A stretch of 64,000 bases of DNA from a candidate division TM6 bacterium GW2011_GWF2_28_16 (GTDB taxonomy: Bacteria > Babelota > Babeliae > Babelales > UASB340): contig LBNX01000002.1 of the NCBI GenBank assembly GCA_000989185.1, positions 358,012 to 422,011 on the forward strand, written 5' to 3'. Of this stretch, positions 6,935 to 58,799 are shown piece after piece (positions within the stretch are counted from its first letter, which is position 1; each line of letters opens with the position of its first letter). Position numbers and translations under genes: made by a program. The notes under the pieces were generated by a model, which saw nothing but the letters and a program-made list of their open reading frames with translations, was not told the DNA's origin and did not search any database.

Positions 6935-7279
6935 ATGAAAAAACTTATTTTAGCTTCTATCTTGTCTGTACTTATGTTGTTACCAACATCTGTTGTTCTT
7001 GCCGGTGGCGGTGATTCTTTTGCTGGAGGTTTAGCAGGGGGAATGGTCGGTGGTGTTGTAGCTGGCGCAATGACAAAGGATAGATCTGGAGGTCGCGCTG
7101 AAAGTAAAGTAGATCAATTACAAAGAGAACGTGATCAGGAAAGATTAGCTCAATTAAAAGAAGAGTTAAATAAAACTAAAACAGAAACAAACTTTAATAT
7201 TTTATTAATATTTATGGGATTAATGTTTATAGCTATTATATTTATGGCTGTAATGCTTTTAAAGATGAGAAAAAAATAA
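6935..7279 (+). CDS. Small exported protein: signal peptide, glycine-zipper segment, coiled coil, C-terminal TM
   Basis: Strong SD (AAGGGAG, 7 nt before ATG). Signal peptide ...VVLA/GGGD. GGLAGGMVGGVVAGA glycine zipper. Heptad-like QLQRERDQERLAQLKEEL. Hydrophobic tail plus KMRKK. Confidence 0.6.
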   Translation: MKKLILASILSVLMLLPTSVVLAGGGDSFAGGLAGGMVGGVVAGAMTKDRSGGRAESKVDQLQRERDQERLAQLKEELNKTKTETNFNILLIFMGLMFIAIIFMAVMLLKMRKK

Positions 7280-7310
7280 TTAAAAGTTTGTAAAAAAAGG
7301 GAGTTTGATT

Positions 7311-7610
7311 GTGAATAAAATTTTTAAAAATTTATTAATTTTTACACTTGTTCCTGGTTTTGTTTGCGCTGGTGGTGGAGATGCTGCTATTGGTCTTGGG
7401 ATGGGATTAGTGGCTGGATCAGCTATGAATAGACCAAGCGAGAAAACTGTTATTGTTCAGCAACCTGCACAACAAGCTACACAAGATTATAGCGCAGAAG
7501 TTGTAAGACTTAGAGAAGAAGTTAACAAGCTATATCAAAAACTTGGCTCTTTAGAAACAGAAAACAAGATGCTTAAAGAACAAGTAGAAGAGTTAAAAAA
7601 CAATAAATAA
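7311..7610 (+). CDS. Small exported glycine-zipper/coiled-coil protein, similar in design to 6935..7279
   Basis: GTG at 7311 has the same SD and spacing (AAGGGAG + 7 nt) as the upstream gene; the track uses TTG 7305. Signal peptide ...FVCA/GGGD, then GLGMGLVAGSA, then coiled coil LREEVNKLYQKLGSLETENKMLKEQVEELK. Confidence 0.55.
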   Translation: MNKIFKNLLIFTLVPGFVCAGGGDAAIGLGMGLVAGSAMNRPSEKTVIVQQPAQQATQDYSAEVVRLREEVNKLYQKLGSLETENKMLKEQVEELKNNK

Positions 7611-7637
7611 TGATATAATGTTGTTCGTTTAGGGGAA

Positions 7638-39301: not shown

Positions 39302-40504
39302 ATGAAGAATTTAAAAAATAAATTTGAACGCGTTAGTCAAAAGTTTGTTAATAAAAAAGAATATTATAAAAAGATAATAGATAAGTGGCGTTTAAAAAAT
39401 GATCTTAGCATGTATAATTCAGCCAATAGTTTATATGAAAAAACAGAGGCTTTATTTAAAGAAATTACAGAAAATTTTACAGCTACGGTAGAAGGACAGC
39501 TTAAGCCTGAATATATAAATAAAAAAATAAAAGAATTTAAACGTGTTAGTAAAAAGTTGAACGATATAACAAAACCTGTTTGGCAGCAATGGATCGAAGC
39601 AATAGTTTTTGCCGGTTCTCTTGTTTTTGTATTACGTACATATGTTTTTGGTCTTTATCATGTGCCTACAGGTTCTGCAGAACCTACAATATTGGTTGGA
39701 GACAGAATTTGGGGAAATAAAACGGTTTATTTTTTTAATAAAATAAAACATGGAGATAGTGTAATTTTTGATAATCCAAGATTTATTTATGACAAATCAA
39801 GTAAAATAAATTATTTTTGGCAAAAATATATTGGGCTGCCTGTTCCATTATTGGGATTGTCTGCTGGTCCAGACAATTGGGTAAAAAGAGTTATAGCTAT
39901 TCCTGGAGATACTATAGAAGGTAGAGTTGAAAATAATAGAACAGTTATTTACAGAAATGGCGTTAAACTTGATGAAACAGCTTATGTAAATAAATATCCA
40001 TTAATTTGTTTAAGAAAGACTACAGGATTTTTACCATTTAATTCTATAGGTATGATTAATATACCGGGCTTTCTTGTTAGTGTTAAAAAACTTGGTTTTT
40101 ATACTTATGATCCAGAAAAATCTTATGACAATCAGCCATTTTATAGCATGAAAGAGAGCGAGATTAAAAAAGATTTGTATGGTTTGCCTATATTAAGAGA
40201 AGCATATTCACCAAGTTATATTTATGATTATGAAACTGGTGATATTGAGCGAAGTGTTGATAACTTTGGACCAATAAGAATACCTGAAGGCAAGTATTGG
40301 GTTATGGGCGATAGCCGTAAAAATAGTGAAGACAGTAGATTTTGGAGTTTGCTGGATGAACATTTAATTCATGGTAGAGCTAGCTTTGTGATTTATTCTG
40401 TAGATAGTGAAGAAGCTCTTTGGATATTTGAACTTATTAAGCATCCAATAGATTTTTGGTTTAAAAATATACGTTACAATAGATTTTTAAAGTGGATTAA
40501 ATAA
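39302..40504 (+). CDS. lepB: Signal peptidase I
   Basis: Catalytic Ser box TGSAEPTILVGD, Lys box VKRVIAIPGD, and GDSRKNSEDSRFW. Confidence 0.85.
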   Translation: MKNLKNKFERVSQKFVNKKEYYKKIIDKWRLKNDLSMYNSANSLYEKTEALFKEITENFTATVEGQLKPEYINKKIKEFKRVSKKLNDITKPVWQQWIEAIVFAGSLVFVLRTYVFGLYHVPTGSAEPTILVGDRIWGNKTVYFFNKIKHGDSVIFDNPRFIYDKSSKINYFWQKYIGLPVPLLGLSAGPDNWVKRVIAIPGDTIEGRVENNRTVIYRNGVKLDETAYVNKYPLICLRKTTGFLPFNSIGMINIPGFLVSVKKLGFYTYDPEKSYDNQPFYSMKESEIKKDLYGLPILREAYSPSYIYDYETGDIERSVDNFGPIRIPEGKYWVMGDSRKNSEDSRFWSLLDEHLIHGRASFVIYSVDSEEALWIFELIKHPIDFWFKNIRYNRFLKWIK

Positions 40505-40507
40505 AAC

Positions 40508-42460
40508 ATGAATAAAAATAAATTTTATGTAACAACGCCAATATATTATGTAAATAGTAAGCCACACTTGGGAACGCTATATTCTACTTTAATAGCAGAT
40601 GTGGCAGCACGTTGGAATAAACTTTTGGGTAAACAAGTATATTTTTTGACAGGCACAGATGAGCATGGTCAAAAAGTAGAAGAAGCAGCACAAAAAAATA
40701 ATAAAGCGCCAAAAGATTTTGTAGACAGCATGATACCTGCTTTTAAAAATACATGGCAAAATTTTGAACTAGATTATAATAAATTTATTAGAACTACAGA
40801 TAAAGAGCATGAACAAGCTGTAACAAGCTTATTAAATATTTTATATAATAATAATGATATTTATAAATCTACTTATTCTGGTTGGTATTGTGTGCCATGC
40901 GAAACTTATGTAACAATAAATCCTGAAATTAAAAAAGATCAAGATGGTAAATATTTATGTCCAACATGTAATAGAGTTTTAAAAGAATTAGAAGAAGAAA
41001 GTTATTTTTTTAGGTTATCTAGTTATCAAGATAAATTACTTGAATTTTACGAAAAAAATCCAGATTTTATAGTTCCAAAAGAAAAGTTAAACGAAGTTAT
41101 TTCTTTTGTTAAATCAGGGTTAAAAGATTTAAGTATCTCTAGAAAAAATATTAAATGGGGCATACCATTGCCTTGGGATAATACTCATACTGCATATGTT
41201 TGGTCCGATGCATTAACAAATTATATTAGTGCTATAGGTTTTGGATCTAAAGATCAAAAAGATATAGAAAATTTTAATAAATATTGGCCAGCAGATTTGC
41301 AAGTCATGGCAAAAGATATAATTCGCTTTCATGCTGTTTATTGGCCTTCTTTTTTAATGGCTGCAAATGTAGCATTGCCAAAAAAATTATTGGTACATGG
41401 TTATATTCTTACAGATGGTGCAAAGATGTCCAAATCTTTGGGCAATGCAACAGACCCAAATGAGCTTGCAAATTTATTTGGTGTTGAGCCATTGCGATAT
41501 TATTTGCTTAGGCAAATGTCTATAAATCAAGATGGTCATTTTGATATACAAGATTTGCAAACTAGAATAGCTTCAGACTTGGCTAATAATTTGGGTAATT
41601 TATTAAATAGAACAGTAACACTTGCAATAAATAATAATTTAATAAATGTTAGTGCGCCAGAAGCATTAGAACCAAAAACTGTAGCATTAAAAGAAAAATG
41701 CGAAGCTGCATACAGAAGTTTTTGGGATGCTATGAATCATTATCAGTTTCATACGGCACTTTCTGAACTGTGGATATTTATTTCGCAGGTTAATGCATTT
41801 TTTCATGAGCAACAACCTTGGACATTGGCAAAAACAGATAAAGAAATGTTTGAAGAAGTTATATATGCTGTCACGCATAGTTTATATGTTATAGGCGTAT
41901 TGCTATGGCCTGTAATGCCTAAAAAGTCACAAGAGTTATTAAGTGCTATAGGTCATGATTTTAATTTAAATAATAATTATGAACAAGATCTAAGAAATAA
42001 TATTTGGAATAAAAAATTTGTTTTAAATAAATTAAATGAGCCTTTATTTATACGTCCGGAGATTGATATGGAAAATAGTGATAGTGCAAAAAAAGATTCT
42101 AGCTTAGAGACTAAGATTACAGATATTCAAGATTTTATAAATATAGAAGATTTTACAAAAGTAAAATTAATTGTAGGAACTATTATAGAGTGTGAGCCTG
42201 TTGCAGGGTCTGATAAGTTATTAAAATTATTAGTAGATATGGGTAGTTTGGGCAAAAAACAAGTGCTTTCTGGCGTTGCACCATATTTTAAACCAGAAGA
42301 GCTTATTGGCAAACAAGGTGTTTATGTACAGAATCTAAAACCACGCAAAATGATGGGTTTAGATTCTAACGGCATGATGCTTTTTGCAAAAGATGAAAGT
42401 GGCAATATGCGCATGGTGACAGTTGCTGGCTCTGTAGATAATGGTACAAGATTATCTTAA
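40508..42460 (+). CDS. metG: Methionyl-tRNA synthetase with a C-terminal tRNA-binding (Trbp111/EMAP-like) domain
   Basis: YVTTPIYYVNSKPHLGT (HIGH-type), Zn knuckle CVPCE...CPTC, KMSKS, and a C-terminal OB-fold (KVKLIVGTIIECEPVAGSDKLLKL). Confidence 0.95.
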   Translation: MNKNKFYVTTPIYYVNSKPHLGTLYSTLIADVAARWNKLLGKQVYFLTGTDEHGQKVEEAAQKNNKAPKDFVDSMIPAFKNTWQNFELDYNKFIRTTDKEHEQAVTSLLNILYNNNDIYKSTYSGWYCVPCETYVTINPEIKKDQDGKYLCPTCNRVLKELEEESYFFRLSSYQDKLLEFYEKNPDFIVPKEKLNEVISFVKSGLKDLSISRKNIKWGIPLPWDNTHTAYVWSDALTNYISAIGFGSKDQKDIENFNKYWPADLQVMAKDIIRFHAVYWPSFLMAANVALPKKLLVHGYILTDGAKMSKSLGNATDPNELANLFGVEPLRYYLLRQMSINQDGHFDIQDLQTRIASDLANNLGNLLNRTVTLAINNNLINVSAPEALEPKTVALKEKCEAAYRSFWDAMNHYQFHTALSELWIFISQVNAFFHEQQPWTLAKTDKEMFEEVIYAVTHSLYVIGVLLWPVMPKKSQELLSAIGHDFNLNNNYEQDLRNNIWNKKFVLNKLNEPLFIRPEIDMENSDSAKKDSSLETKITDIQDFINIEDFTKVKLIVGTIIECEPVAGSDKLLKLLVDMGSLGKKQVLSGVAPYFKPEELIGKQGVYVQNLKPRKMMGLDSNGMMLFAKDESGNMRMVTVAGSVDNGTRLS

Positions 42461-42504
42461 ATAAATTATTTATTTATTAAAATATTAATTAGCAGGAATA
42501 TATT

Positions 42505-43161
42505 ATGTGCAAAAGAATATATTTATATATTTTTATGAGCTTATTTTTTTTACAACTTTTTTCTATGAATGTAGTTAATGAAGTAAAAAAATATAATGCT
42601 AGTGATTTGCATTTGTTATTTATGAAAAATATAGCTGTAAATGAGCTTAAAAATATTTATTTATTAAATAAACCAGAACAAGTATTAAATGGTAAAAAAA
42701 TGTTATATAAAAAATTAATGGTTCTTGATTCTATAGATAGAGCGCCATTTTTTTATTGTTTTTTGGCGCCAAAGTTAGATTTAGAAATGGTTAAATTTTT
42801 GTTAGAAAATAATGCCCCAATTGGTAAAGGTGCTTTATTTGCTGATTATAAAGATATAGTAGCAAAAATTTTAAAATATAAAGATTCGCAAAATAATACG
42901 ATATTTCACTATGCAGTAAATTATAAACATTTAGAATTGATAGAATTTTTTGTCAAAAATGGTGAATATAAATATTTACAAGCAACAAATACTGAAAATA
43001 AAACAGTTGTTAATCTTATAGCAGAAAACGATATAAAATTTATAGAAAAATGTATTGAGATTTTTCGGAATTATTTGGGTGATAATAGTATTGGAATAGA
43101 AAAATATCTTCAAGAGGCAATATTTGATAAAAAAAGTCGCTGTTGTTGTGAGCAGTTTTAA
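42505..43161 (+). CDS. Secreted ankyrin-repeat-like protein ending in CCCEQF
   Basis: SD AGGAA. Signal peptide ...FFLQLFS/M. Degenerate ANK units (NTIFHYAVNYKHLELIEFFVKNG; APFFYCFLAPKLDLEMVKFLLENNA). C-terminus SRCCCEQF. Confidence 0.7.
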   Translation: MCKRIYLYIFMSLFFLQLFSMNVVNEVKKYNASDLHLLFMKNIAVNELKNIYLLNKPEQVLNGKKMLYKKLMVLDSIDRAPFFYCFLAPKLDLEMVKFLLENNAPIGKGALFADYKDIVAKILKYKDSQNNTIFHYAVNYKHLELIEFFVKNGEYKYLQATNTENKTVVNLIAENDIKFIEKCIEIFRNYLGDNSIGIEKYLQEAIFDKKSRCCCEQF

Positions 43162-43253
43162 TTTAATGTAATTATATAAATGAGAATAGTTAGTAGTTTT
43201 GTTGAAAGTTGTAGGTAATTATCAAAATAAATTTAATTTCAATAGGAATACTA

Positions 43254-43916
43254 ATGATAAAAAAAATATTTTTACTTATATTATTTTCGCAAATATATTC
43301 AAATGTTTTTTGCATGCAAGATAAACTTAAAAAAAATTGTGGGCTGACAGAATTGCATTTTATTTTGTTTGATAATCCTACTGTTAAAGAACTTGAGAGT
43401 GGATATTCTTTGGATTCAGAAAATTTAAATACATTTGTTGCTGGTTTGAAGCGATTAGAGTGTGCTTTATCTAGAGTAGATATTTTTCAAAGAGCACCAT
43501 TTTTTATGTGCTTTTTAACTAATAATGAGATAAATTTAGATTTAATTGTTTATTTAATGAAAAAAAAGGCGCCAATTGGTTCTGGAGCTTTGGATGAAAA
43601 ATATAAAGAAAGGGCTCAAGATCTTTTAAGTTCTAAAGATATTGATGAGAATAACTTATTTCATTATGCAGCTTATTATAAACATTTAGAACTTATAGAA
43701 TTTTTTTGTAAAAACTGTGAATATAAAGATTTACATATGCAGAATAAAAATAAAGATTCTATTATGGATATTATTTTAGACACAGATGATGAAGTTTTTA
43801 TAAAAGCTTGCTGGAATATTTTAATTAAATATTTTAATGCACATAAATTTAAAATAGAATATTATCCTAAAGAAAGAGAAAAAAGTAGAAAAATATGTTG
43901 TTGTGAGCAATTTTAG
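43254..43916 (+). CDS. Secreted ankyrin-repeat-like protein ending in CCCEQF; tandem paralog of 42505..43161
   Basis: SD AGGAA. Signal peptide ...YSNVFC/M. NNLFHYAAYYKHLELIEFFCKNC. C-terminus KICCCEQF. The last 18 nt are nearly identical to the paralog. Confidence 0.7.
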   Translation: MIKKIFLLILFSQIYSNVFCMQDKLKKNCGLTELHFILFDNPTVKELESGYSLDSENLNTFVAGLKRLECALSRVDIFQRAPFFMCFLTNNEINLDLIVYLMKKKAPIGSGALDEKYKERAQDLLSSKDIDENNLFHYAAYYKHLELIEFFCKNCEYKDLHMQNKNKDSIMDIILDTDDEVFIKACWNILIKYFNAHKFKIEYYPKEREKSRKICCCEQF

Positions 43917-43925
43917 ATTAAATTT

Positions 43926-45179
43926 ATGGGGAGAGATATGTCAAAGTTTGATGCTCAAAAATTAAAAAAAGATTTTATGTTTTTTGAACATAATAAAAAT
44001 TTAATTTATTTAGATAGTGCAGCGACTACTCAAAAACCCAAACAGGTAATTCAAACTTTAGTAGATTTTTACGAAAAATATAATTCTAATGTTCACAGGT
44101 CTATACACGAAATGGGCGAAGCTTCGACTTCATTATACGAGCAGGCTCGACAGGATATAGCGAAATTTTTTAATGCATATCCTGAAGAAGTTATATTTAC
44201 ATCTGGAACTACAGAGGGAATTAATTTTATTGCAGATACCTGGGGCAGGGATAATCTAAAATCTGGTGATTATATAGTAACAACGCAAGTAGAGCACCAT
44301 GCTAACTTTTTGCCTTGGTTAAGATTAATAAAAAGAAATAATGCCAAATTAAAGTTTTTAGAATTAGATATAAAAACTTTTTTTATAAAAAATAATTTAG
44401 ATGATAATAATTTTTGGGATAAAAATATTAAATTATTATCGATATCTGGTAATTCGAATATATTAAGTGACTTTTGGCAAGATAATAACTTGCAAGAATT
44501 TATTGATAAAGCGCATTCTATTGGGGCTAAAGTTTTATTAGACGCTTCGCAAATGGCACCATGCAAAAAAATAGATGTAAAAAAATTAAATATAGATTTT
44601 ATGGTTCTCTCTGGTCATAAAATGTTGGCACCTACAGGTATTGGCGTTTTATTTATAAAAAAAGAATTACACGATAAAGTTGAACCATACAGAGTTGGAG
44701 GCTCTATGGTGCAAGCTGCATCTTTTAATGATGCAATATGGAAACAAGCACCAGATAAATTTGAAGCTGGAACTCCTGCAATAGCTCAGGCAATAGGTTT
44801 GGGCCAAGCTGTAAAATATCTAGAAAAAAATATTAATTTTAAAGAATACGAAAAGCACACAGCTAATTTATGTAGTTTATTAATAGATGGTTTATTAAAA
44901 ATAAAAGATATAAATATTATAGGTAATATAGAACAACTTAAAAAAACTGGGCATTTAGTTAGCTTTTATTTGCCCTATATTCATGCGCATGATCTTAGTG
45001 GATTTTTGGCAGGATTGGGCGTTGCTGTGCGAAGTGGGCATCACTGTGCACAGCCATTAGCATCTGTGTTGGGATTAGTTTCTACAGTTCGTGTAAGCTT
45101 TTATATTTATAGCACTGTAAATGACGTAGAAATTTTTTTAGATAAATTAAATGAGACCATAAAGTTTTTTAGAAAGTAG
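43926..45179 (+). CDS. sufS: Cysteine desulfurase, SufS type
   Basis: YLDSAATTQKP, PLP-Lys context LSGHKMLAPTGIGVL, active-site RSGHHCAQP. The start may be ATG 43938. Confidence 0.9.
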   Translation: MGRDMSKFDAQKLKKDFMFFEHNKNLIYLDSAATTQKPKQVIQTLVDFYEKYNSNVHRSIHEMGEASTSLYEQARQDIAKFFNAYPEEVIFTSGTTEGINFIADTWGRDNLKSGDYIVTTQVEHHANFLPWLRLIKRNNAKLKFLELDIKTFFIKNNLDDNNFWDKNIKLLSISGNSNILSDFWQDNNLQEFIDKAHSIGAKVLLDASQMAPCKKIDVKKLNIDFMVLSGHKMLAPTGIGVLFIKKELHDKVEPYRVGGSMVQAASFNDAIWKQAPDKFEAGTPAIAQAIGLGQAVKYLEKNINFKEYEKHTANLCSLLIDGLLKIKDINIIGNIEQLKKTGHLVSFYLPYIHAHDLSGFLAGLGVAVRSGHHCAQPLASVLGLVSTVRVSFYIYSTVNDVEIFLDKLNETIKFFRK

Positions 45180-45182
45180 TTT

Positions 45183-45566
45183 ATGAATAATAAAATTTAT
45201 CAAGAAAGATTAATGGAGCATTTTAAAAACTCTATCTATAAAAACAAAATAGCAAATCCAGATTTTTCTAGTGGCCAGCAAAACCCATCTTGTGGTGATA
45301 GCATTTTAATTGAGGGTAAGTTGGGTGTAGACTCAGATACTGGAAAAAACATAATAAAAGAATTAAGTTTTAATGGTTCTGGTTGCGTTATTAGTCAGGC
45401 AGCAGCATCGATTTTAATAGAAAATTGCTTAGGTAAAACTGTAGAAGAAATATTAAAGCTTGACTCAAATGATATTATTAAAATGTTAGGTATAGAGTTA
45501 GGGCCAAATAGAATTAAGTGTGCTTTATTGTCTTTGGAGGCGTTAAAAGCTAGTTTGAAAAAATAA
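45183..45566 (+). CDS. sufU: Fe-S cluster assembly sulfur-acceptor/scaffold, SufU type
   Basis: NPSCGDSI, GSGCVISQA and RIKCALL, the three conserved Cys. Lies directly after sufS. Confidence 0.85.
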   Translation: MNNKIYQERLMEHFKNSIYKNKIANPDFSSGQQNPSCGDSILIEGKLGVDSDTGKNIIKELSFNGSGCVISQAAASILIENCLGKTVEEILKLDSNDIIKMLGIELGPNRIKCALLSLEALKASLKK

Positions 45567-45589
45567 TTTTAAATAAAAGGGGGAGATTT

Positions 45590-47230
45590 ATGTTAAAAAA
45601 TATAAAATATTATTTATTAATTTTATTTTTGATAATATTTAGTGTAAATCTAAAATCGAATACAGAAAATATTATAAATTTTGAAGGTGATAGCATGCTA
45701 GATATTCAAATTACAGAAAAAAGTTTTTGGCAAAATGATGTAGAAGGTTACGTCTTTTTGTTAAAAGAGGGGCTTTATTCTACTGGTCAAGATACAGACT
45801 TTGAAAAAGTAGAAAAAGAATATTATCCAAATTTAAGAGACATTTTATCTAAGCATAAATTTACAGGAAAATTTGGTGAGATTTTTGTTTTAACAGGAAC
45901 AAAAAACAATAAACTTGTACAGTTTATATTTGCAGGCTTAGGTAAACTTGATACAACGTGGAACTATGAACTGGAAAATTTAAGAAGAACAATAGGATCA
46001 GTTGTTTTAAAATTAAAAGAATTAGAAATAAAAACAGCTGTTCTTGAATTACCTGCAGATGATAAACCTTTTGGTCTTATAAGAGATAGATTAATAAGAC
46101 AGGTTGTAATTGCAGCTCTTATGGCTAATTATGAATTTACAGAATTTAAAACAGATAAAGAGGGTAAAGAAAAACTTGAATATAAACTTTTAATTTATCC
46201 AGGTGATAAACAAGAACAAACTTATGTATTAGGCTTGCAAGAGGGTTTAATAATTGGTAATGCTACAAATTTTACAAGAATGTTACAAGATTTGCCTGCA
46301 AATTATTTAAATCCAAAAGCTCTTGCAGAACAAGCTAAAATTTTGGCAGATGAGCATAATCTAGAATGTAAAGTTTTAGGAGTTAAAGAAGCTCAAAAGC
46401 TTGGGATGGGTGGCTTTTTGGCTGTTAGCTCTGGTTCAGATAATGAACCACAATTTGTTATTTTAGAATATAATAATGACAAAAAAGATGTGCCAACTAT
46501 AGCTCTTGTTGGTAAGGGAGTAACATTCGATTCTGGCGGAATAAGCTTAAAACCTTCAGATTCTATGACAGGCATGAAGTTTGATATGTCTGGTGCTGCG
46601 GCAGTCTATGGTGCATTTAAAATTATTGCACAACTAAAACCAAATGTTAGAGTTATTGGCATTACACCACTAGTAGAAAACATGCCAAGTGGTAAAGCTT
46701 GCAGACAAGATGATATAATTAGATTTTTGAATGGCAAAACTGCAGAGATCAAAAATACAGATGCAGAGGGCAGATTAATTTTAGCTGATGCACTTTCGTA
46801 TGCAGAAAAATTTTATAGCCCAGATGTTATTGTTGATATAGCTACTTTAACTGGTGCATGCTTGTACGCATTGGGTCATTCGTTTACAGCTCTTATGACA
46901 TTAAACGATGATATTGGAACAAAATTGCAAGCAACTGGTTTAGTTACAGGTGATAGAGTTTGGCCATTGCCTTTAGATAAAGATTTTAAAGATGCCATTA
47001 AATCTGAAGTTGCAGATATTGCAAATATTGGTGCCTCAAATTATAAAGCCGGAACAATTACAGCAGCATGGTTTTTGAAAAATTTTGTTGAAAAAGCAAA
47101 ATGGGCTCATTTAGATATTGCTGGTACTGCAGACGGTGTTCCTGGAGTTAGTTATTTAGGCAAAGGTGCAACTGGTGCAGGCGTTAGACTTATGTCTGAG
47201 TTTGTTTTAAATTATAATAAAAACAAGTAA
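45590..47230 (+). CDS. pepA: Leucyl aminopeptidase (M17), possibly with an N-terminal signal-like extension
   Basis: VGKGVTFDSGGISLKP, MKFDMSGAAAV, NTDAEGRLILAD, ATLTGAC. Two candidate starts: 45590 (SD AAGGGGGAG) and 45695 (SD GAAGGTGA). Confidence 0.9.
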   Translation: MLKNIKYYLLILFLIIFSVNLKSNTENIINFEGDSMLDIQITEKSFWQNDVEGYVFLLKEGLYSTGQDTDFEKVEKEYYPNLRDILSKHKFTGKFGEIFVLTGTKNNKLVQFIFAGLGKLDTTWNYELENLRRTIGSVVLKLKELEIKTAVLELPADDKPFGLIRDRLIRQVVIAALMANYEFTEFKTDKEGKEKLEYKLLIYPGDKQEQTYVLGLQEGLIIGNATNFTRMLQDLPANYLNPKALAEQAKILADEHNLECKVLGVKEAQKLGMGGFLAVSSGSDNEPQFVILEYNNDKKDVPTIALVGKGVTFDSGGISLKPSDSMTGMKFDMSGAAAVYGAFKIIAQLKPNVRVIGITPLVENMPSGKACRQDDIIRFLNGKTAEIKNTDAEGRLILADALSYAEKFYSPDVIVDIATLTGACLYALGHSFTALMTLNDDIGTKLQATGLVTGDRVWPLPLDKDFKDAIKSEVADIANIGASNYKAGTITAAWFLKNFVEKAKWAHLDIAGTADGVPGVSYLGKGATGAGVRLMSEFVLNYNKNK

Positions 47231-47319: not shown

Positions 47320-47721
47320 TTAAATTTTTTTTAATAATTTTGATATTTCACTTAGAGTAGCATAATGTATTGGTTGTATTACTGTAATGCCTTTTATTTT
47401 GTAAGTTTCCTTTTTTGTCTCTTTATCTAGCTCACCTTTTATGTATTTACCATCTATTTCTATTTTTTCTCCAGGTTCAAAAAGTATTAAACAAGCATCT
47501 TCTGGTACTTTAATTTTATTTTCGCCATCTGCTAAAATATTATTATAGTTACAGTAAATCATACATATACCTGTAACATGCCATGGTTCTGCTGGCGTGA
47601 AATCTTCTGTTAGTTCAAATGTTTTATTTTTTATAATTTCTTGTTTTTGAGAAGACTCCATGGCACTAATATTTGAAAATAAGAAAATAGTTAATGCAAA
47701 TTTTAATAAATTTTTATTCAT
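47320..47721 (-). CDS. Small secreted protein, one copy of the module found in 48067..48756
   Basis: Signal peptide MNKNLLKFALTIFLFSNISA/M, nearly identical to that of 48067..48756 at the nucleotide level. Start overlaps the upstream stop (TAATG). Confidence 0.55.
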   Translation of the reverse strand: MNKNLLKFALTIFLFSNISAMESSQKQEIIKNKTFELTEDFTPAEPWHVTGICMIYCNYNNILADGENKIKVPEDACLILFEPGEKIEIDGKYIKGELDKETKKETYKIKGITVIQPIHYATLSEISKLLKKI

Positions 47722-48029
47722 TAAAGATCCTTTAATATTTTAGCAAATTCTTCATCTGTTGCCATTTCGCCTTTTAAAATTGAACAATTTTTATCTTTCC
47801 AATATGATTGCATATTCATATTTTTTCGGGTTACTTTTTCTGCCATTTTGCGGTCGCTACCAAGCTGGCTCATAAAAAATTGTACACCACCCTCAAAGAT
47901 TTCTTCGCAAGATTTTACGCTTCCGTCTGGGTTAACACAGTATAGACAGAATATTGAATTTTCATCTTTGAGTGCAAAATCTTCTTTTTTGCTCATGGGC
48001 ATTCCGCATGATTCGCAGTGTTTTTGCAT
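47721..48029 (-). CDS. Zinc-ribbon domain protein (Zn_ribbon_2-like)
   Basis: CESCGMPM...FCLYCVNPDG, a four-Cys ribbon at the N-terminus followed by a helical tail, as in the family with CxxCgMP...YCxxC as recalled. Confidence 0.65.
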   Translation of the reverse strand: MQKHCESCGMPMSKKEDFALKDENSIFCLYCVNPDGSVKSCEEIFEGGVQFFMSQLGSDRKMAEKVTRKNMNMQSYWKDKNCSILKGEMATDEEFAKILKDL

Positions 48030-48066: not shown

Positions 48067-48756
48067 TTAAATTTTGGCCAGATCTATAAACTCTATAGAA
48101 TATATTTTATCAAAAATATTGGAATCTATTGCATCTATTCTTGAATTATTCGAAACAATTATATTGTTTGAATTTCCATTTAATTTTAAATTATAAAAAA
48201 ATAACACACTATTTTTTGAAATATTAATAAAGCCCGTATTTTCTAGTGTTAATTGATGATTGTTGCCATTAATAAGACATACTCCATTAAATTCATTATA
48301 GCACTCTTTCCAAACTGTATCTTGTGTGAGTTCTATTATTTGATTTGAATAAGAATTATGTGTTGTAGTTAAAGTTGTGGGTTTATTTTTTTTAAAAATA
48401 TTTGCAATATTTGTATGAGATTTAGTTATTTCACTATTATATATAGAAGAATTAATTAATATAAGTTTGGCATTTGAATTTATCACAAATGTTCCAATTT
48501 CAGATTTTAAAACATGTGTATTTATTATTATTAATAATGAATTATCATTGATTGATAAAATTGCATCTTCATCCAAATTTAATTCATTATTATTGCTATT
48601 TATTATACAAATTCCATCTATTGAATGATTTTCTTTCCAAAGTGTGTTTTTTATTAAATTTAATACCTCGTTTTTATGAATTATTGTATTATTCATGGCA
48701 TTAATATTTGAAAATAAGAAAATAGTTAATACAAATTTTAATAGATTTTTATTCAT
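48067..48756 (-). CDS. Secreted protein with two copies of a ~90-aa beta-rich module
   Basis: SD AAAGGAG. Signal peptide MNKNLLKFVLTIFLFSNINA/M. Internal repeat: NTLWKENHSIDGICIINSNNNELNLDEDAILSINDNSLL and DTVWKECYNEFNGVCLINGNNHQLTLENTGFINISKNSVL. Confidence 0.6.
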   Translation of the reverse strand: MNKNLLKFVLTIFLFSNINAMNNTIIHKNEVLNLIKNTLWKENHSIDGICIINSNNNELNLDEDAILSINDNSLLIIINTHVLKSEIGTFVINSNAKLILINSSIYNSEITKSHTNIANIFKKNKPTTLTTTHNSYSNQIIELTQDTVWKECYNEFNGVCLINGNNHQLTLENTGFINISKNSVLFFYNLKLNGNSNNIIVSNNSRIDAIDSNIFDKIYSIEFIDLAKI

Positions 48757-56799: not shown

Positions 56800-57519
56800 A
56801 TGAAAAAAATGAATATTTTTACAAAAATTATGTTAATTTTTGCTATTTTAGTTAATATTTTGTCTTTTGATTTAAATGCATCTATAAGACGTAGACTTAA
56901 TGCAAGAAGAGAACAATCTGTTGTTAATGGACCTATGGATAGGTTTGTAATTCGAAGAGTTAGAGTTGTTGAGCAACAAGTTCAAGAACAACAAGTGCTT
57001 GAAATTAATTTTGATTTATTCAGAGAACAACTTGTTGCAACAAATTTAAATCAAGAGATTGTAAATTTAATTATTGAAAGAATTCGAGATTATAATTCTG
57101 AAAATTTAAATGAGATTCTAGATTTATCTGGATTATTTATTACAGATGCAAGATTGCAGATTATAATACCATTTTTGGCACAAAGAAATGTTAGAAAACT
57201 AAATCTTGCTGGTAATCAAATAAGATTAATACCACAAAATATTAGAGAATTAGTAAATTTAAATTATTTAAATTTAAATAATAATAATATTGTTTATTTT
57301 AACGCAAGTTTTAGAGATTTTATACAGGGCGAAAATTCTTTAGAAGTTTTATCAAAAATGCAAAATTTAAGAATAATATTATTACAAAATAATAATTTAG
57401 ATTATATACCATATAGATTTTTAGGTATGAGAAATTTAGAAGTATTAAATGCAAGTGATAATCGATTAAATATTGGTACTCAAAGATTTAGAAATGATAA
57501 TAGGTTTATTTTAGATTAA
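56800..57519 (+). CDS. Secreted leucine-rich-repeat protein (eukaryote-like LRR)
   Basis: Signal peptide, then SIRRRLNARREQS. LRR units LNLAGNQIRLIPQNIRELVNLNYLNLNNNNI and LQNNNLDYIPYRFLGMRNLEVLNASDNRL. Confidence 0.75.
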   Translation: MKKMNIFTKIMLIFAILVNILSFDLNASIRRRLNARREQSVVNGPMDRFVIRRVRVVEQQVQEQQVLEINFDLFREQLVATNLNQEIVNLIIERIRDYNSENLNEILDLSGLFITDARLQIIIPFLAQRNVRKLNLAGNQIRLIPQNIRELVNLNYLNLNNNNIVYFNASFRDFIQGENSLEVLSKMQNLRIILLQNNNLDYIPYRFLGMRNLEVLNASDNRLNIGTQRFRNDNRFILD

Positions 57520-57536: not shown

Positions 57537-58799
57537 ATGAAATTTTTAAATAAAAAAATATTAATATTATTTTTAAGTTTATTAACATTAAATAATTTTA
57601 GTTTTGGTTCTATAAGAAAAAAGCTTGAAAGACGAAGAGCAGAATCTCCAAATAATTCTAGATTTAATAGAATTGATAAATTTATGTTTGATAAAGAATC
57701 TTTGGACATTATAGGGTTTATTGCGCAAGATGAGATACAAAATGTTTCTGTAGAGTTTAAAGGCTTTTGTTCTTGTATATATTCTTATTTGAATGAACAA
57801 AATAGTTTTAAAAATGTTGAAATTGAAAGTTACATAGATGGAATAGTTGAAAATCTTGTTAATACAAGAAAGCTTAGTTTTGATACTTTTAATTCTATAA
57901 ATAAAGTATCTTTTAAAAAATTATGGACTCAAATGTACAATAACCTAAAAAATGAAGCTTTGAGTTTGGGGATTAGTTGGTCTGAAACATTTTTGATGCA
58001 AGAAATATTAAATGATTATAATAATGAACAAGAAAATTTTGTATTGGATGATGAATCTTTAAATATTATAAATGAATTTGTATCTAATATTTTTATGGAT
58101 TGTTCTAATGAATTTAGAGTTTGGGGTGACAAAATATTATCAAATAGATGCTTATCTAATAAATACGTTTCAATTGAAAAGATAACAGAAAATATAATTA
58201 TAGATTTTGTAAAAAATTGTGGTTACAAATCTGAAGATATTGGGTTTAAAGTTTTATGGACAGAGTTATATAAGAATTTAAAAGATGAAGCAATTAGTTA
58301 TGGTATTAATTGGTTAGATACTAATTTAATGCAAGAAATAGTTGATAAATATGACATAGCAAAAGATTTTGTATATTTATCTAATGATGAAATATATAGC
58401 TCAATTAATACTGTTATAGATATAGTAAAGGGTGAATATATTACTACAACGCCACAATTTAGATCTTTATGTGAAAAAGTTCTTGAATATTATTTACCAC
58501 AAGAATTGCAAGAAACATCATTTGAGATTTTTATATCAGAAAGAGTTGCGGATTTAGTTTTTGGAAAATTGGGTGATATTTCAGAAGAAAGTATAGAATT
58601 TTTTGAAGAATGGTTGGTTATTTATACTTTATTATTTTTTGAAGCAAAAGCTCTTGGAATTGGTGAATTTATATTTCCAAGTAATGATTCAAATACGGAT
58701 ATAATAGGGTATCACCTTAAAGGTGCAGGATTAACAAAAGCTGATTTTATCAAAAAGTTTAATGAGCAGTATCTTAAAAAAGATGATGATAATGATTAA
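57537..58799 (+). CDS. Secreted protein with three ~110-aa internal repeats, unknown function
   Basis: Signal peptide, then SIRKKLERRRAES. Repeated blocks such as FKKLWTQMYNNLKNEALSLGISWSETFLMQEI and FKVLWTELYKNLKDEAISYGINWLDTNLMQEI. Starts 17 nt after the LRR gene. Confidence 0.6.
   Translation: MKFLNKKILILFLSLLTLNNFSFGSIRKKLERRRAESPNNSRFNRIDKFMFDKESLDIIGFIAQDEIQNVSVEFKGFCSCIYSYLNEQNSFKNVEIESYIDGIVENLVNTRKLSFDTFNSINKVSFKKLWTQMYNNLKNEALSLGISWSETFLMQEILNDYNNEQENFVLDDESLNIINEFVSNIFMDCSNEFRVWGDKILSNRCLSNKYVSIEKITENIIIDFVKNCGYKSEDIGFKVLWTELYKNLKDEAISYGINWLDTNLMQEIVDKYDIAKDFVYLSNDEIYSSINTVIDIVKGEYITTTPQFRSLCEKVLEYYLPQELQETSFEIFISERVADLVFGKLGDISEESIEFFEEWLVIYTLLFFEAKALGIGEFIFPSNDSNTDIIGYHLKGAGLTKADFIKKFNEQYLKKDDDND

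Follow-up and report, generated by a model that had tools for sequence, protein, structure and literature searches.

We analysed a 64,000-nucleotide stretch of DNA from a candidate division TM6 (Dependentiae) bacterium, GW2011_GWF2_28_16 (contig LBNX01000002.1, positions 358,012 to 422,011; hereafter the window), in which two adjacent genes encode diverged ankyrin-repeat (ANK) proteins that both end in the hexapeptide CCCEQF. Dependentiae are widespread, almost entirely uncultured, obligate intracellular parasites of protists. The last four residues of the tail have the spacing of a CaaX box, in which host prenyltransferases modify a cysteine four residues from the carboxyl end (position -4), and a cysteine at exactly -4 is the sole tail feature common to all seven syntenic members of the family. 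On balance we find it fairly probable that these proteins are ankyrin effectors exported by the general secretory (Sec) pathway and anchored to host membranes through host prenylation, with the extra cysteines and neighbouring basic residues acting as a second signal. Their delivery to the host and their lipidation are what we infer from the sequences described below.

A cysteine at a fixed distance from the C-terminus

Both open reading frames (ORFs) lie on the forward strand. Paralogue 1 (42505..43161, +) encodes 218 amino acids, matches P0001 (SZ59_C0002G0361) at 100% and ends in KKSRCCCEQF; paralogue 2 (43254..43916, +) encodes 220 amino acids, ends in KSRKICCCEQF and has an orthologue, P0003, in the related Logan contig L001. 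By sequence reading, each start codon follows a Shine-Dalgarno-like AGGA, 7 nt 5' of the ATG in paralogue 1 (42494..42497, +) and 6 nt 5' of it in paralogue 2 (43244..43247, +). An earlier note on this DNA had described two adjacent ORFs of about 220 amino acids with good ribosome-binding sites, and this description holds. A scan for promoters and terminators was uninformative at the window's GC content of 28% (22 promoter-like sites against 23.5 expected).

The tail codons occupy 43141..43158 (+) in paralogue 1 and 43896..43913 (+) in paralogue 2, and comprise a CaaX-like box, CEQF, with its cysteine at -4 and two preceding cysteines. In paralogue 1 the cluster is abutted by a basic patch, KKSR (43129..43140, +), which is a candidate second membrane signal; the KSR upstream of the cysteines is kept in both proteins. 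The two proteins are 39% identical (pairwise BLASTP, E 2e-42) and their genes 60.6% identical overall, yet 17 of the 18 nucleotides of the tail codons agree, bearing out the remark in the same note that diverged proteins end identically. The sole other block as conserved as the tail between the paralogues is YKHLELIEFF, in an ankyrin helix.

The gene pair also occurs in L001, between the genes for methionyl-tRNA synthetase (MetRS) and the cysteine desulfurase SufS, and both products end in CCCEQF, while the residues that precede the hexapeptide vary across the window and L001 proteins (FDKKSR, EKSRKI, FIKKH). Further syntenic loci were fetched via SufS homologues. Directly upstream of SufS we found family members of 221 amino acids in L063 (P0057; SufS 78% identical to that of the window; tail ...NPCSNCAMF), 227 amino acids in L068 (SufS 71% identical; tail ...NPCSCDMF) and 218 amino acids in L069 (SufS 69% identical; tail ...GPCSVM). 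P0057 is a positional orthologue, the gene order in L063 being signal peptidase I, MetRS, a small ORF, the ankyrin gene, SufS, NifU_N and M17 peptidase. Counting all syntenic family proteins, Cys is at -4 in 7/7, from five genomes, within CEQF (four times), CAMF, CDMF and CSVM.

Comparison of profiles shows the window-type subfamily to be homologous to the distant-type one (hhalign 97.8%, E 1e-12, query columns 5-166), with the homology limited to the signal peptide and the ankyrin core; the roughly 50 residues before the tail cannot be aligned. The distant tails PCSVM, PCSCDMF and PCSNCAMF have PCS in common and differ by insertions and deletions, and each has its cysteine at -4. Tails that are shifted by indels and yet keep a cysteine exactly at -4 argue for selection on the distance from the carboxyl end, as opposed to passive inheritance. 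The exact spacing thus points to selection on the very distance that defines the geometry of CaaX recognition. Across 162 ORFs of the Dependentiae loci the frequency of cysteine is 1.06%, with zero cysteines at -1 to -3; nine of these ORFs have Cys at -4, and seven of the nine belong to this ankyrin family.

These comparisons bear on the idea that the tail has no specific function, that a recent duplication or gene conversion explains the identical ends, and that the cysteine at -4 of the orthologues is a coincidence. Few lineages have been sampled, and the paralogues have a second block that is as well conserved as the tail; both facts leave room for this idea. We nevertheless consider it highly improbable, because the near-identity of the tail stands against the divergence of the remainder, because the L001 orthologues keep the tail intact while the residues before it differ, and because the chance of a cysteine at -4 in three further lineages, given its frequency, is about 1e-6.

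We then place the family by its fold. Pfam Ank_2 matched protein 1 at 34.6 bits, over its cut-off of 27.3, and protein 2 at 19.3 bits, below it. The Pfam ankyrin stretches in protein 1 cover residues 92-154 and 130-153, and its ankyrin core as a whole (42739..42984, +; approximately residues 79-160) holds two to three degenerate repeats, of which the unit at 130-153 is the best. A profile of eight family members matched solved ANK and DARPin chains with E values of 4e-30 to 1e-10. The AlphaFold2 model is all-helical (pLDDT, the per-residue confidence, 81; pTM, the template-modelling score, 0.75), with helix pairs in the ankyrin core, a long C-terminal helix (177-216) that bears the tail and, at the N-terminus of paralogue 1, a helix (2-23) followed by a low-confidence linker. 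Foldseek matches of this model were exclusively ankyrin proteins, though weak (E about 1e-2). Taken together, the Pfam match of protein 1, the family profile and the model assign the family to the ankyrin-repeat proteins, and the degenerate ankyrin units described earlier are real.

The N-termini consist of a K/R-containing n-region, a hydrophobic core of 14-16 residues, a serine or cysteine and then an invariant methionine. In paralogue 1 (42505..42564, +) MCKR is followed by IYLYIFMSLFFLQLFS and Met21, and in paralogue 2 (43254..43313, +) MIKK is followed by IFLLILFSQIYSNVFC and Met21; this methionine is unchanged in 8/8 family members. Signal peptides were called here by a crude hydropathy heuristic, which supports the earlier proposal of an N-terminal signal peptide on the strength of the basic n-region and hydrophobic core, and the N-termini are consistent with Sec signal peptides.

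The junction of a small residue with methionine is not confined to this family. Of 71 hydrophobic N-termini, 19 have an [S/G/A/C]-M junction after the signal-peptide-like segment, whereas random 16-residue windows show it at a rate of 5%. Its sites include, in the window, 42562-42567, 43311-43316, the genes from 14491 and from 18480, 47320-47721 (-) and 48067-48756 (-), as well as genes in L063, L068, L070 and L071. The junction could reflect a preference of the signal peptidase, a sub-class of export signals or an alternative internal start. Signal peptidase I, encoded close by, is itself an unusually long protein of 400 amino acids, in which the S26 domain begins at residue 94.

Extent of the tail and its fit to prenyltransferases

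Having defined the tail, we asked how far it extends. Within the window CCCEQF occurs nowhere beyond the two ORF ends. We scanned GTDB (one genome for each of 185,579 species) and JGI metagenomes with the DNA pattern TGYTGYTGYGARCARTTYTAR, which combines degenerate CCCEQF codons with TAA or TAG stops and excludes TGA. The window's own genes came back from neither collection, so its genome is in neither of them. The scan returned 21 matches in GTDB and 40 in JGI, and all 61 were chance, out-of-frame or short: the stretches upstream of them ran from 6 to 112 codons stop-to-stop, most of them below 60, and none was family-like. Tails like CCCEQF were also missing from the 154 other Dependentiae ORFs. 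At the protein level, an HMMER search run exhaustively over 1.84 billion representatives recovered P0001 and P0003 as the only close full-length relatives and P0028 and P0057 as remote ones, the remainder being generic ankyrin proteins; word-indexed searches returned two proteins from the protein 1 query and four from a six-member alignment, and IMG/VR viral contigs scanned with the family alignment gave no match. CCCEQF is therefore specific to this family and is not a general tag. The proteome-wide enrichment that the earlier note had envisaged was not seen, with the tail confined to these ankyrin proteins.

The same results dispose of a second suggestion, that of a bacterial sorting tag. 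Tags of the LPXTG, PEP-CTERM or GlyGly-CTERM type bear no resemblance to CCCEQF, which is itself the very end of the protein and is followed by no hydrophobic segment; no NCBIfam sorting domain matched, and in the window, the GTDB representatives and JGI no further genuine ORF closes with CCCEQF and a stop. A Rab-type substrate (CC, CXC or CCXXX), also proposed, was likewise rejected, since Pfam found no Ras or Rab GTPase domain and the fold is an ankyrin solenoid.

To judge CEQF as a prenylation site we turned to published specificities. When all 8000 CXXX sequences were screened in yeast, farnesyltransferase (FTase) proved to be restricted mainly by D, E, K or R at a2 and by K, P or R at X (PMC10320760). 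CEQF has no aliphatic residue at a1 or a2, yet it has none of the FTase-restricted residues at a2 or X either. In the Ydj1-based version of that screen it has an EF of 1.43 and an HM score of 4.32, over the cut-off of 3, while its Ras-based HM score is 1.10 (PMC10320760); these values describe the yeast enzymes and may not transfer to the protist host. The corresponding values are 2.05, 4.77 and 5.44 for CAMF and 1.48, 4.00 and 2.82 for CDMF, and the negative comparison motif CEQK has an EF of 0.16 (PMC10320760). Being over the Ydj1 cut-off, CEQF is farnesylatable by prediction, although non-canonical, and would probably escape cleavage of its aaX residues (a 'shunted' product). The caveat raised earlier, that this is a poor canonical CaaX box, accordingly stands in part: the box is non-canonical, and the Ydj1 values soften the objection.

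Geranylgeranylation, which had been suggested on the ground that X is F, fits less well. The yeast type I geranylgeranyltransferase (GGTase-I) favours Cxa[L/F/I/M/V] in which a2 is non-polar (PMC11304957). CEQF misses this motif by its glutamine at a2, whereas CAMF, CDMF and CSVM match both it and the FTase preferences. The CaaX reading as such gains from the orthologues, whose boxes CSVM, CAMF and CDMF are better suited to prenylation and extend Cys(-4) to the whole syntenic set; the lipidation itself is an interpretation of these motifs.

Host S-acylation (palmitoylation) of the cysteine cluster alone could be another explanation, with the C-x-x-F spacing incidental in the window lineage and CEQF no prenyltransferase substrate in the actual host. 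Three consecutive cysteines beside a basic patch, the polar a2, the low Ras-based score of CEQF and the precedent of Legionella LpdA, which is palmitoylated at a C-terminal cysteine, all speak for it. The L069 orthologue, however, has a single tail cysteine, placed within the canonical box CSVM, and the indels of the distant tails retain a cysteine at exactly -4, whereas S-acylation is tied to no particular distance from the carboxyl end and as a rule requires the protein to have touched the membrane already; the Ydj1 result for CEQF points the same way. We therefore hold S-acylation alone to be distinctly unlikely. The single-cysteine CSVM orthologue and the exact spacing weaken every alternative to host prenylation that we considered.

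The MetRS-SufS slot

The gene pair lies between two conserved blocks, both identified by Pfam. Upstream (39302..42460, +) are signal peptidase I (S26, 400 amino acids) and MetRS, an order kept in L001, L063, L067, L068, L070, L072 and L073; downstream (43926..47230, +) are a SufS-type cysteine desulfurase, a NifU_N/SufU scaffold and an M17 aminopeptidase, an order kept in all syntenic loci. The interval between MetRS and SufS (42461-43925 in the window) is a variable island among Dependentiae. In L066 and L067 it holds only a 62-amino-acid ORF. Elsewhere it contains a RING-finger protein (L072, 3087-4253, -), an RNI-type leucine-rich repeat (LRR) protein with a signal-peptide-like N-terminus (L073, 3087-4490, +), a pentapeptide/metallophosphatase protein (L069, 3441-4982, -) or a canonical 264-amino-acid ankyrin protein with a signal-peptide-like N-terminus (L068, 3926-4720, +). 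A protein of 390-415 amino acids with a signal-peptide-like N-terminus and no Pfam match recurs next to SufS (L069, 684-1919; L070, 4551-5723; L072, 4676-5923; L073, 4551-5783; all -) and looks like an alpha/beta-hydrolase by its motifs. Several other ORFs near the slot that lack a Pfam match also have signal-peptide-like N-termini. Judged by its gene content, the slot suits an effector island.

This setting decides against a role in iron-sulfur cluster assembly, in which the ankyrin protein would be an accessory factor of the adjacent SufS-SufU system and its tail a persulfide acceptor or cluster ligand. The tail is rich in cysteine, and the gene is always directly upstream of sufS-sufU and co-directional with it, at a gap of 9-39 nt and with no terminator-like site in between; in the window sufS starts 9 nt past the stop codon of paralogue 2. 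Against this, the signal peptide would take the ankyrin protein out of the cytoplasm, the compartment in which SufS and SufU work, the L069 tail has just one cysteine, and five related genomes keep sufS-sufU without the ankyrin gene. Unrelated secreted RING, LRR or hydrolase genes occupy the same slot, arguing against a functional link despite the 9-nt spacing, and gene order here carries no functional meaning, as the neighbouring MetRS, signal peptidase I and M17 genes make plain. We rejected this role on the grounds of the signal peptide, the gene loss in the five genomes and the island-like slot, and regard it as scarcely credible.

Several other features of these loci deserve mention. In L073 the NifU_N/SufU gene is split into two ORFs (7255-7419 and 7441-7626; 54 and 61 amino acids) on a metagenome contig, which is either a frameshift or pseudogene or else an assembly error. 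Downstream of the M17 peptidase, several Dependentiae genomes carry between two and five genes for PQ-loop (PF04193) membrane proteins in tandem (L071, 9291-12997; L067, 11151-13203; L072, 9864-12205; L066, 6597-7695, with two copies, the second cut by the end of the locus). The window itself has a further pair of paralogues at 47320-47721 (-) and 48067-48756 (-), without Pfam match and with near-identical signal peptides (MNKNLLKFALTIFLFSNISAM and MNKNLLKFVLTIFLFSNINAM); a zinc-ribbon (PF12674) gene lies between them (47721-48029, -). Two adjacent genes at 56800-57519 (+) and 57537-58799 (+) encode proteins in which an Arg-rich run follows the signal-peptide-like segment (SIRRRLNARREQS and SIRKKLERRRAESPNN); the first product has LRR_8 repeats and the second is without Pfam match.

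Proposed delivery to the host and comparison with known systems

If host prenylation is the right reading, the N-terminal signal peptide would direct the proteins to the Sec pathway, and they would leave the cell by the phylum-conserved type II secretion system or in outer-membrane vesicles. In the cytosol of the protist host, a host prenyltransferase would recognise C-x-x-X and Cys(-4) would be farnesylated or geranylgeranylated, as the motif and its conservation suggest. The likely enzyme for CEQF would be FTase, while CAMF, CDMF and CSVM would suit FTase and/or GGTase-I. In the window lineage, the two extra cysteines, as candidate S-acylation sites, and the KSR/KK patch could form a second signal like that of Ras. 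This would hold the ankyrin domain at the cytosolic surface of a host membrane, with a host protein as its possible binding partner.

What has been described in the phylum is compatible with such a route. In the cultured relative Chromulinavorax destructans, signal peptides were found on 44% of proteins and on 78% of the 98 ankyrin proteins; the bacterium is in the host cytoplasm by 3 h, and vesicles are shed (PMC6561590). The type II secretion system is core to TM6 (PMC4776705). Given this cytoplasmic lifestyle, the vesicles and the secretion system, a Sec-exported protein could plausibly meet host prenyltransferases, by analogy with these relatives.

A number of points weigh against host prenylation. 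A Sec signal peptide takes a protein to the periplasm only, and all CaaX effectors known to us use type III or type IV secretion systems. CEQF is non-canonical, with an acidic a1 and a polar a2, its Ras-based score is low, and the scores come from yeast. About three deep independent lineages have been sampled, the family is missing from several related genomes, and the remote relative P0028, on a 1.3-kb contig without informative context, is the one exception to the spacing: it ends in CFIDN, with its cysteine at -5. Outside the family, Cys is at -4 in 2 of 154 Dependentiae ORFs (CSII and CFMP); this equals the background rate and so gives no sign yet of a wider repertoire of CaaX effectors.

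A further alternative places the function on the bacterial side: an ankyrin protein of the periplasm or envelope, for example one acting as inhibitor or immunity protein in the manner of Bd3460 of Bdellovibrio, whose C-terminal cysteines serve disulfides, metal binding or tethering and never meet host enzymes. The signal peptide alone predicts the periplasm, the closest folds include that of Bd3460, an ankyrin immunity protein of the periplasm, and no type III or type IV system has been described in the phylum. No known bacterial process, however, reads a cysteine at a fixed -4; with one tail cysteine in L069, neither an intra-tail disulfide nor a metal cluster can be the conserved feature; the residues a1, a2 and X vary freely, as in CaaX boxes; and NCBIfam finds no sorting or anchoring domain. 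We judge a bacterial-side role to be unlikely.

Cysteines at -4 were also seen in proteins unrelated to the family. The two Dependentiae ORFs just mentioned encode small signal-peptide-like proteins: one (L070, 11498-12043, -) ends in ...YSGCSII, a canonical-looking box, and the other (L068, 11295-11621, -) in ...KIKSKIKCFMP, a polybasic stretch with CFMP. They may be chance occurrences at the background rate, yet by their sequences they are candidates for lipidation. The profile search also retrieved 148 unrelated ankyrin proteins. Apart from P0057, five of these carry a cysteine at -4 (P0007, P0017, P0046 and P0115 among them); three of the five have canonical boxes (CLLQ, CVVQ and CVIQ) and look like long ankyrin proteins of eukaryotic type.

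A wider scenario is conceivable, though we hold it only tentatively and would not call it probable. Dependentiae would send out Sec-dependent effectors through type II secretion or vesicles, with no injection apparatus, to be lipidated by the host, and an ancestral box of the CSVM/CAMF type would have given way to a tri-cysteine tail with a non-canonical CxxF code, CCCEQF, possibly a multi-lipid anchor (farnesyl plus two acyl groups, uncleaved) tuned to one protist host. Were this scenario true, there would for the first time be evidence of prenylation mimicry beyond the Pseudomonadota, and likewise of classical signal peptides on CaaX effectors. Host prenylation of the family, if confirmed, would carry such mimicry beyond Legionella and Salmonella into a distant phylum and would show that Sec-exported proteins of parasites dwelling in the cytoplasm can exploit it, and CCCEQF would add a natural case of a non-canonical, probably 'shunted' CXXX sequence. 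The conserved CaaX-type box offers a directly testable handle on the host destination of one effector family. Our literature search found no paper that mentions CaaX and Dependentiae together.

Among known systems, we compared the family first with Legionella pneumophila AnkB (LegAU13/Ceg27), an F-box/ankyrin effector whose C-terminal CaaX box, CVLC, receives a farnesyl group from the host. In each case the protein is small, comes from an intracellular parasite that lives in protists and has a C-terminal cysteine at -4 behind its ankyrin repeats; the outcome proposed for the window proteins, attachment by host prenylation to the cytosolic side of host membranes, is the same. The window family is not part of the AnkB family: no F-box matched in Pfam at E <= 10, the sequence relation is limited to the generic ankyrin repeat, and the sole NCBIfam match in the ankyrin region, to AnkX, reached 17.6 bits against a cut-off of 1400. 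AnkB is delivered by the Dot/Icm type IV system, whereas the window family has a Sec-type signal peptide, and the box of the window lineage differs in being non-canonical and preceded by two extra cysteines. The Legionella Pel proteins (PelA-K) are unrelated effectors that have only a C-terminal CaaX box in common, whose cysteine is needed for localisation to membranes or the vacuole; they differ from the window family in belonging to another phylum, in being type IV substrates and in their canonical aliphatic boxes.

The tail itself resembles that of Salmonella SifA, which ends in CLCCFL and undergoes host geranylgeranylation together with S-acylation of a neighbouring cysteine; GtgE is also a precedent. 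Both SifA and the window proteins have a cysteine-rich hexapeptide with a CaaX cysteine, adjacent cysteines (S-acylated in SifA) and a hydrophobic last residue, but SifA has an unrelated fold, is delivered by type III secretion and has a hydrophobic a2 (F) where the window proteins have Q. Bd3460 resembles the family as a small bacterial ankyrin protein exported by a signal peptide and is among the best fold matches, although the match is weak (E about 2e-2, TM about 0.26); the window proteins, for their part, carry the conserved Cys(-4). Signal-peptide-bearing ankyrin proteins of other Dependentiae, for example in Chromulinavorax destructans (98 ankyrin proteins, 78% of them with signal peptides), share phylum and architecture with the family and are presumed effectors. 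By analogy, AnkB, the Pel effectors, SifA and GtgE would be the closest functional counterparts of the window proteins; host-prenylated bacterial effectors are already known, and such a family in Dependentiae would, by our literature search, be new.

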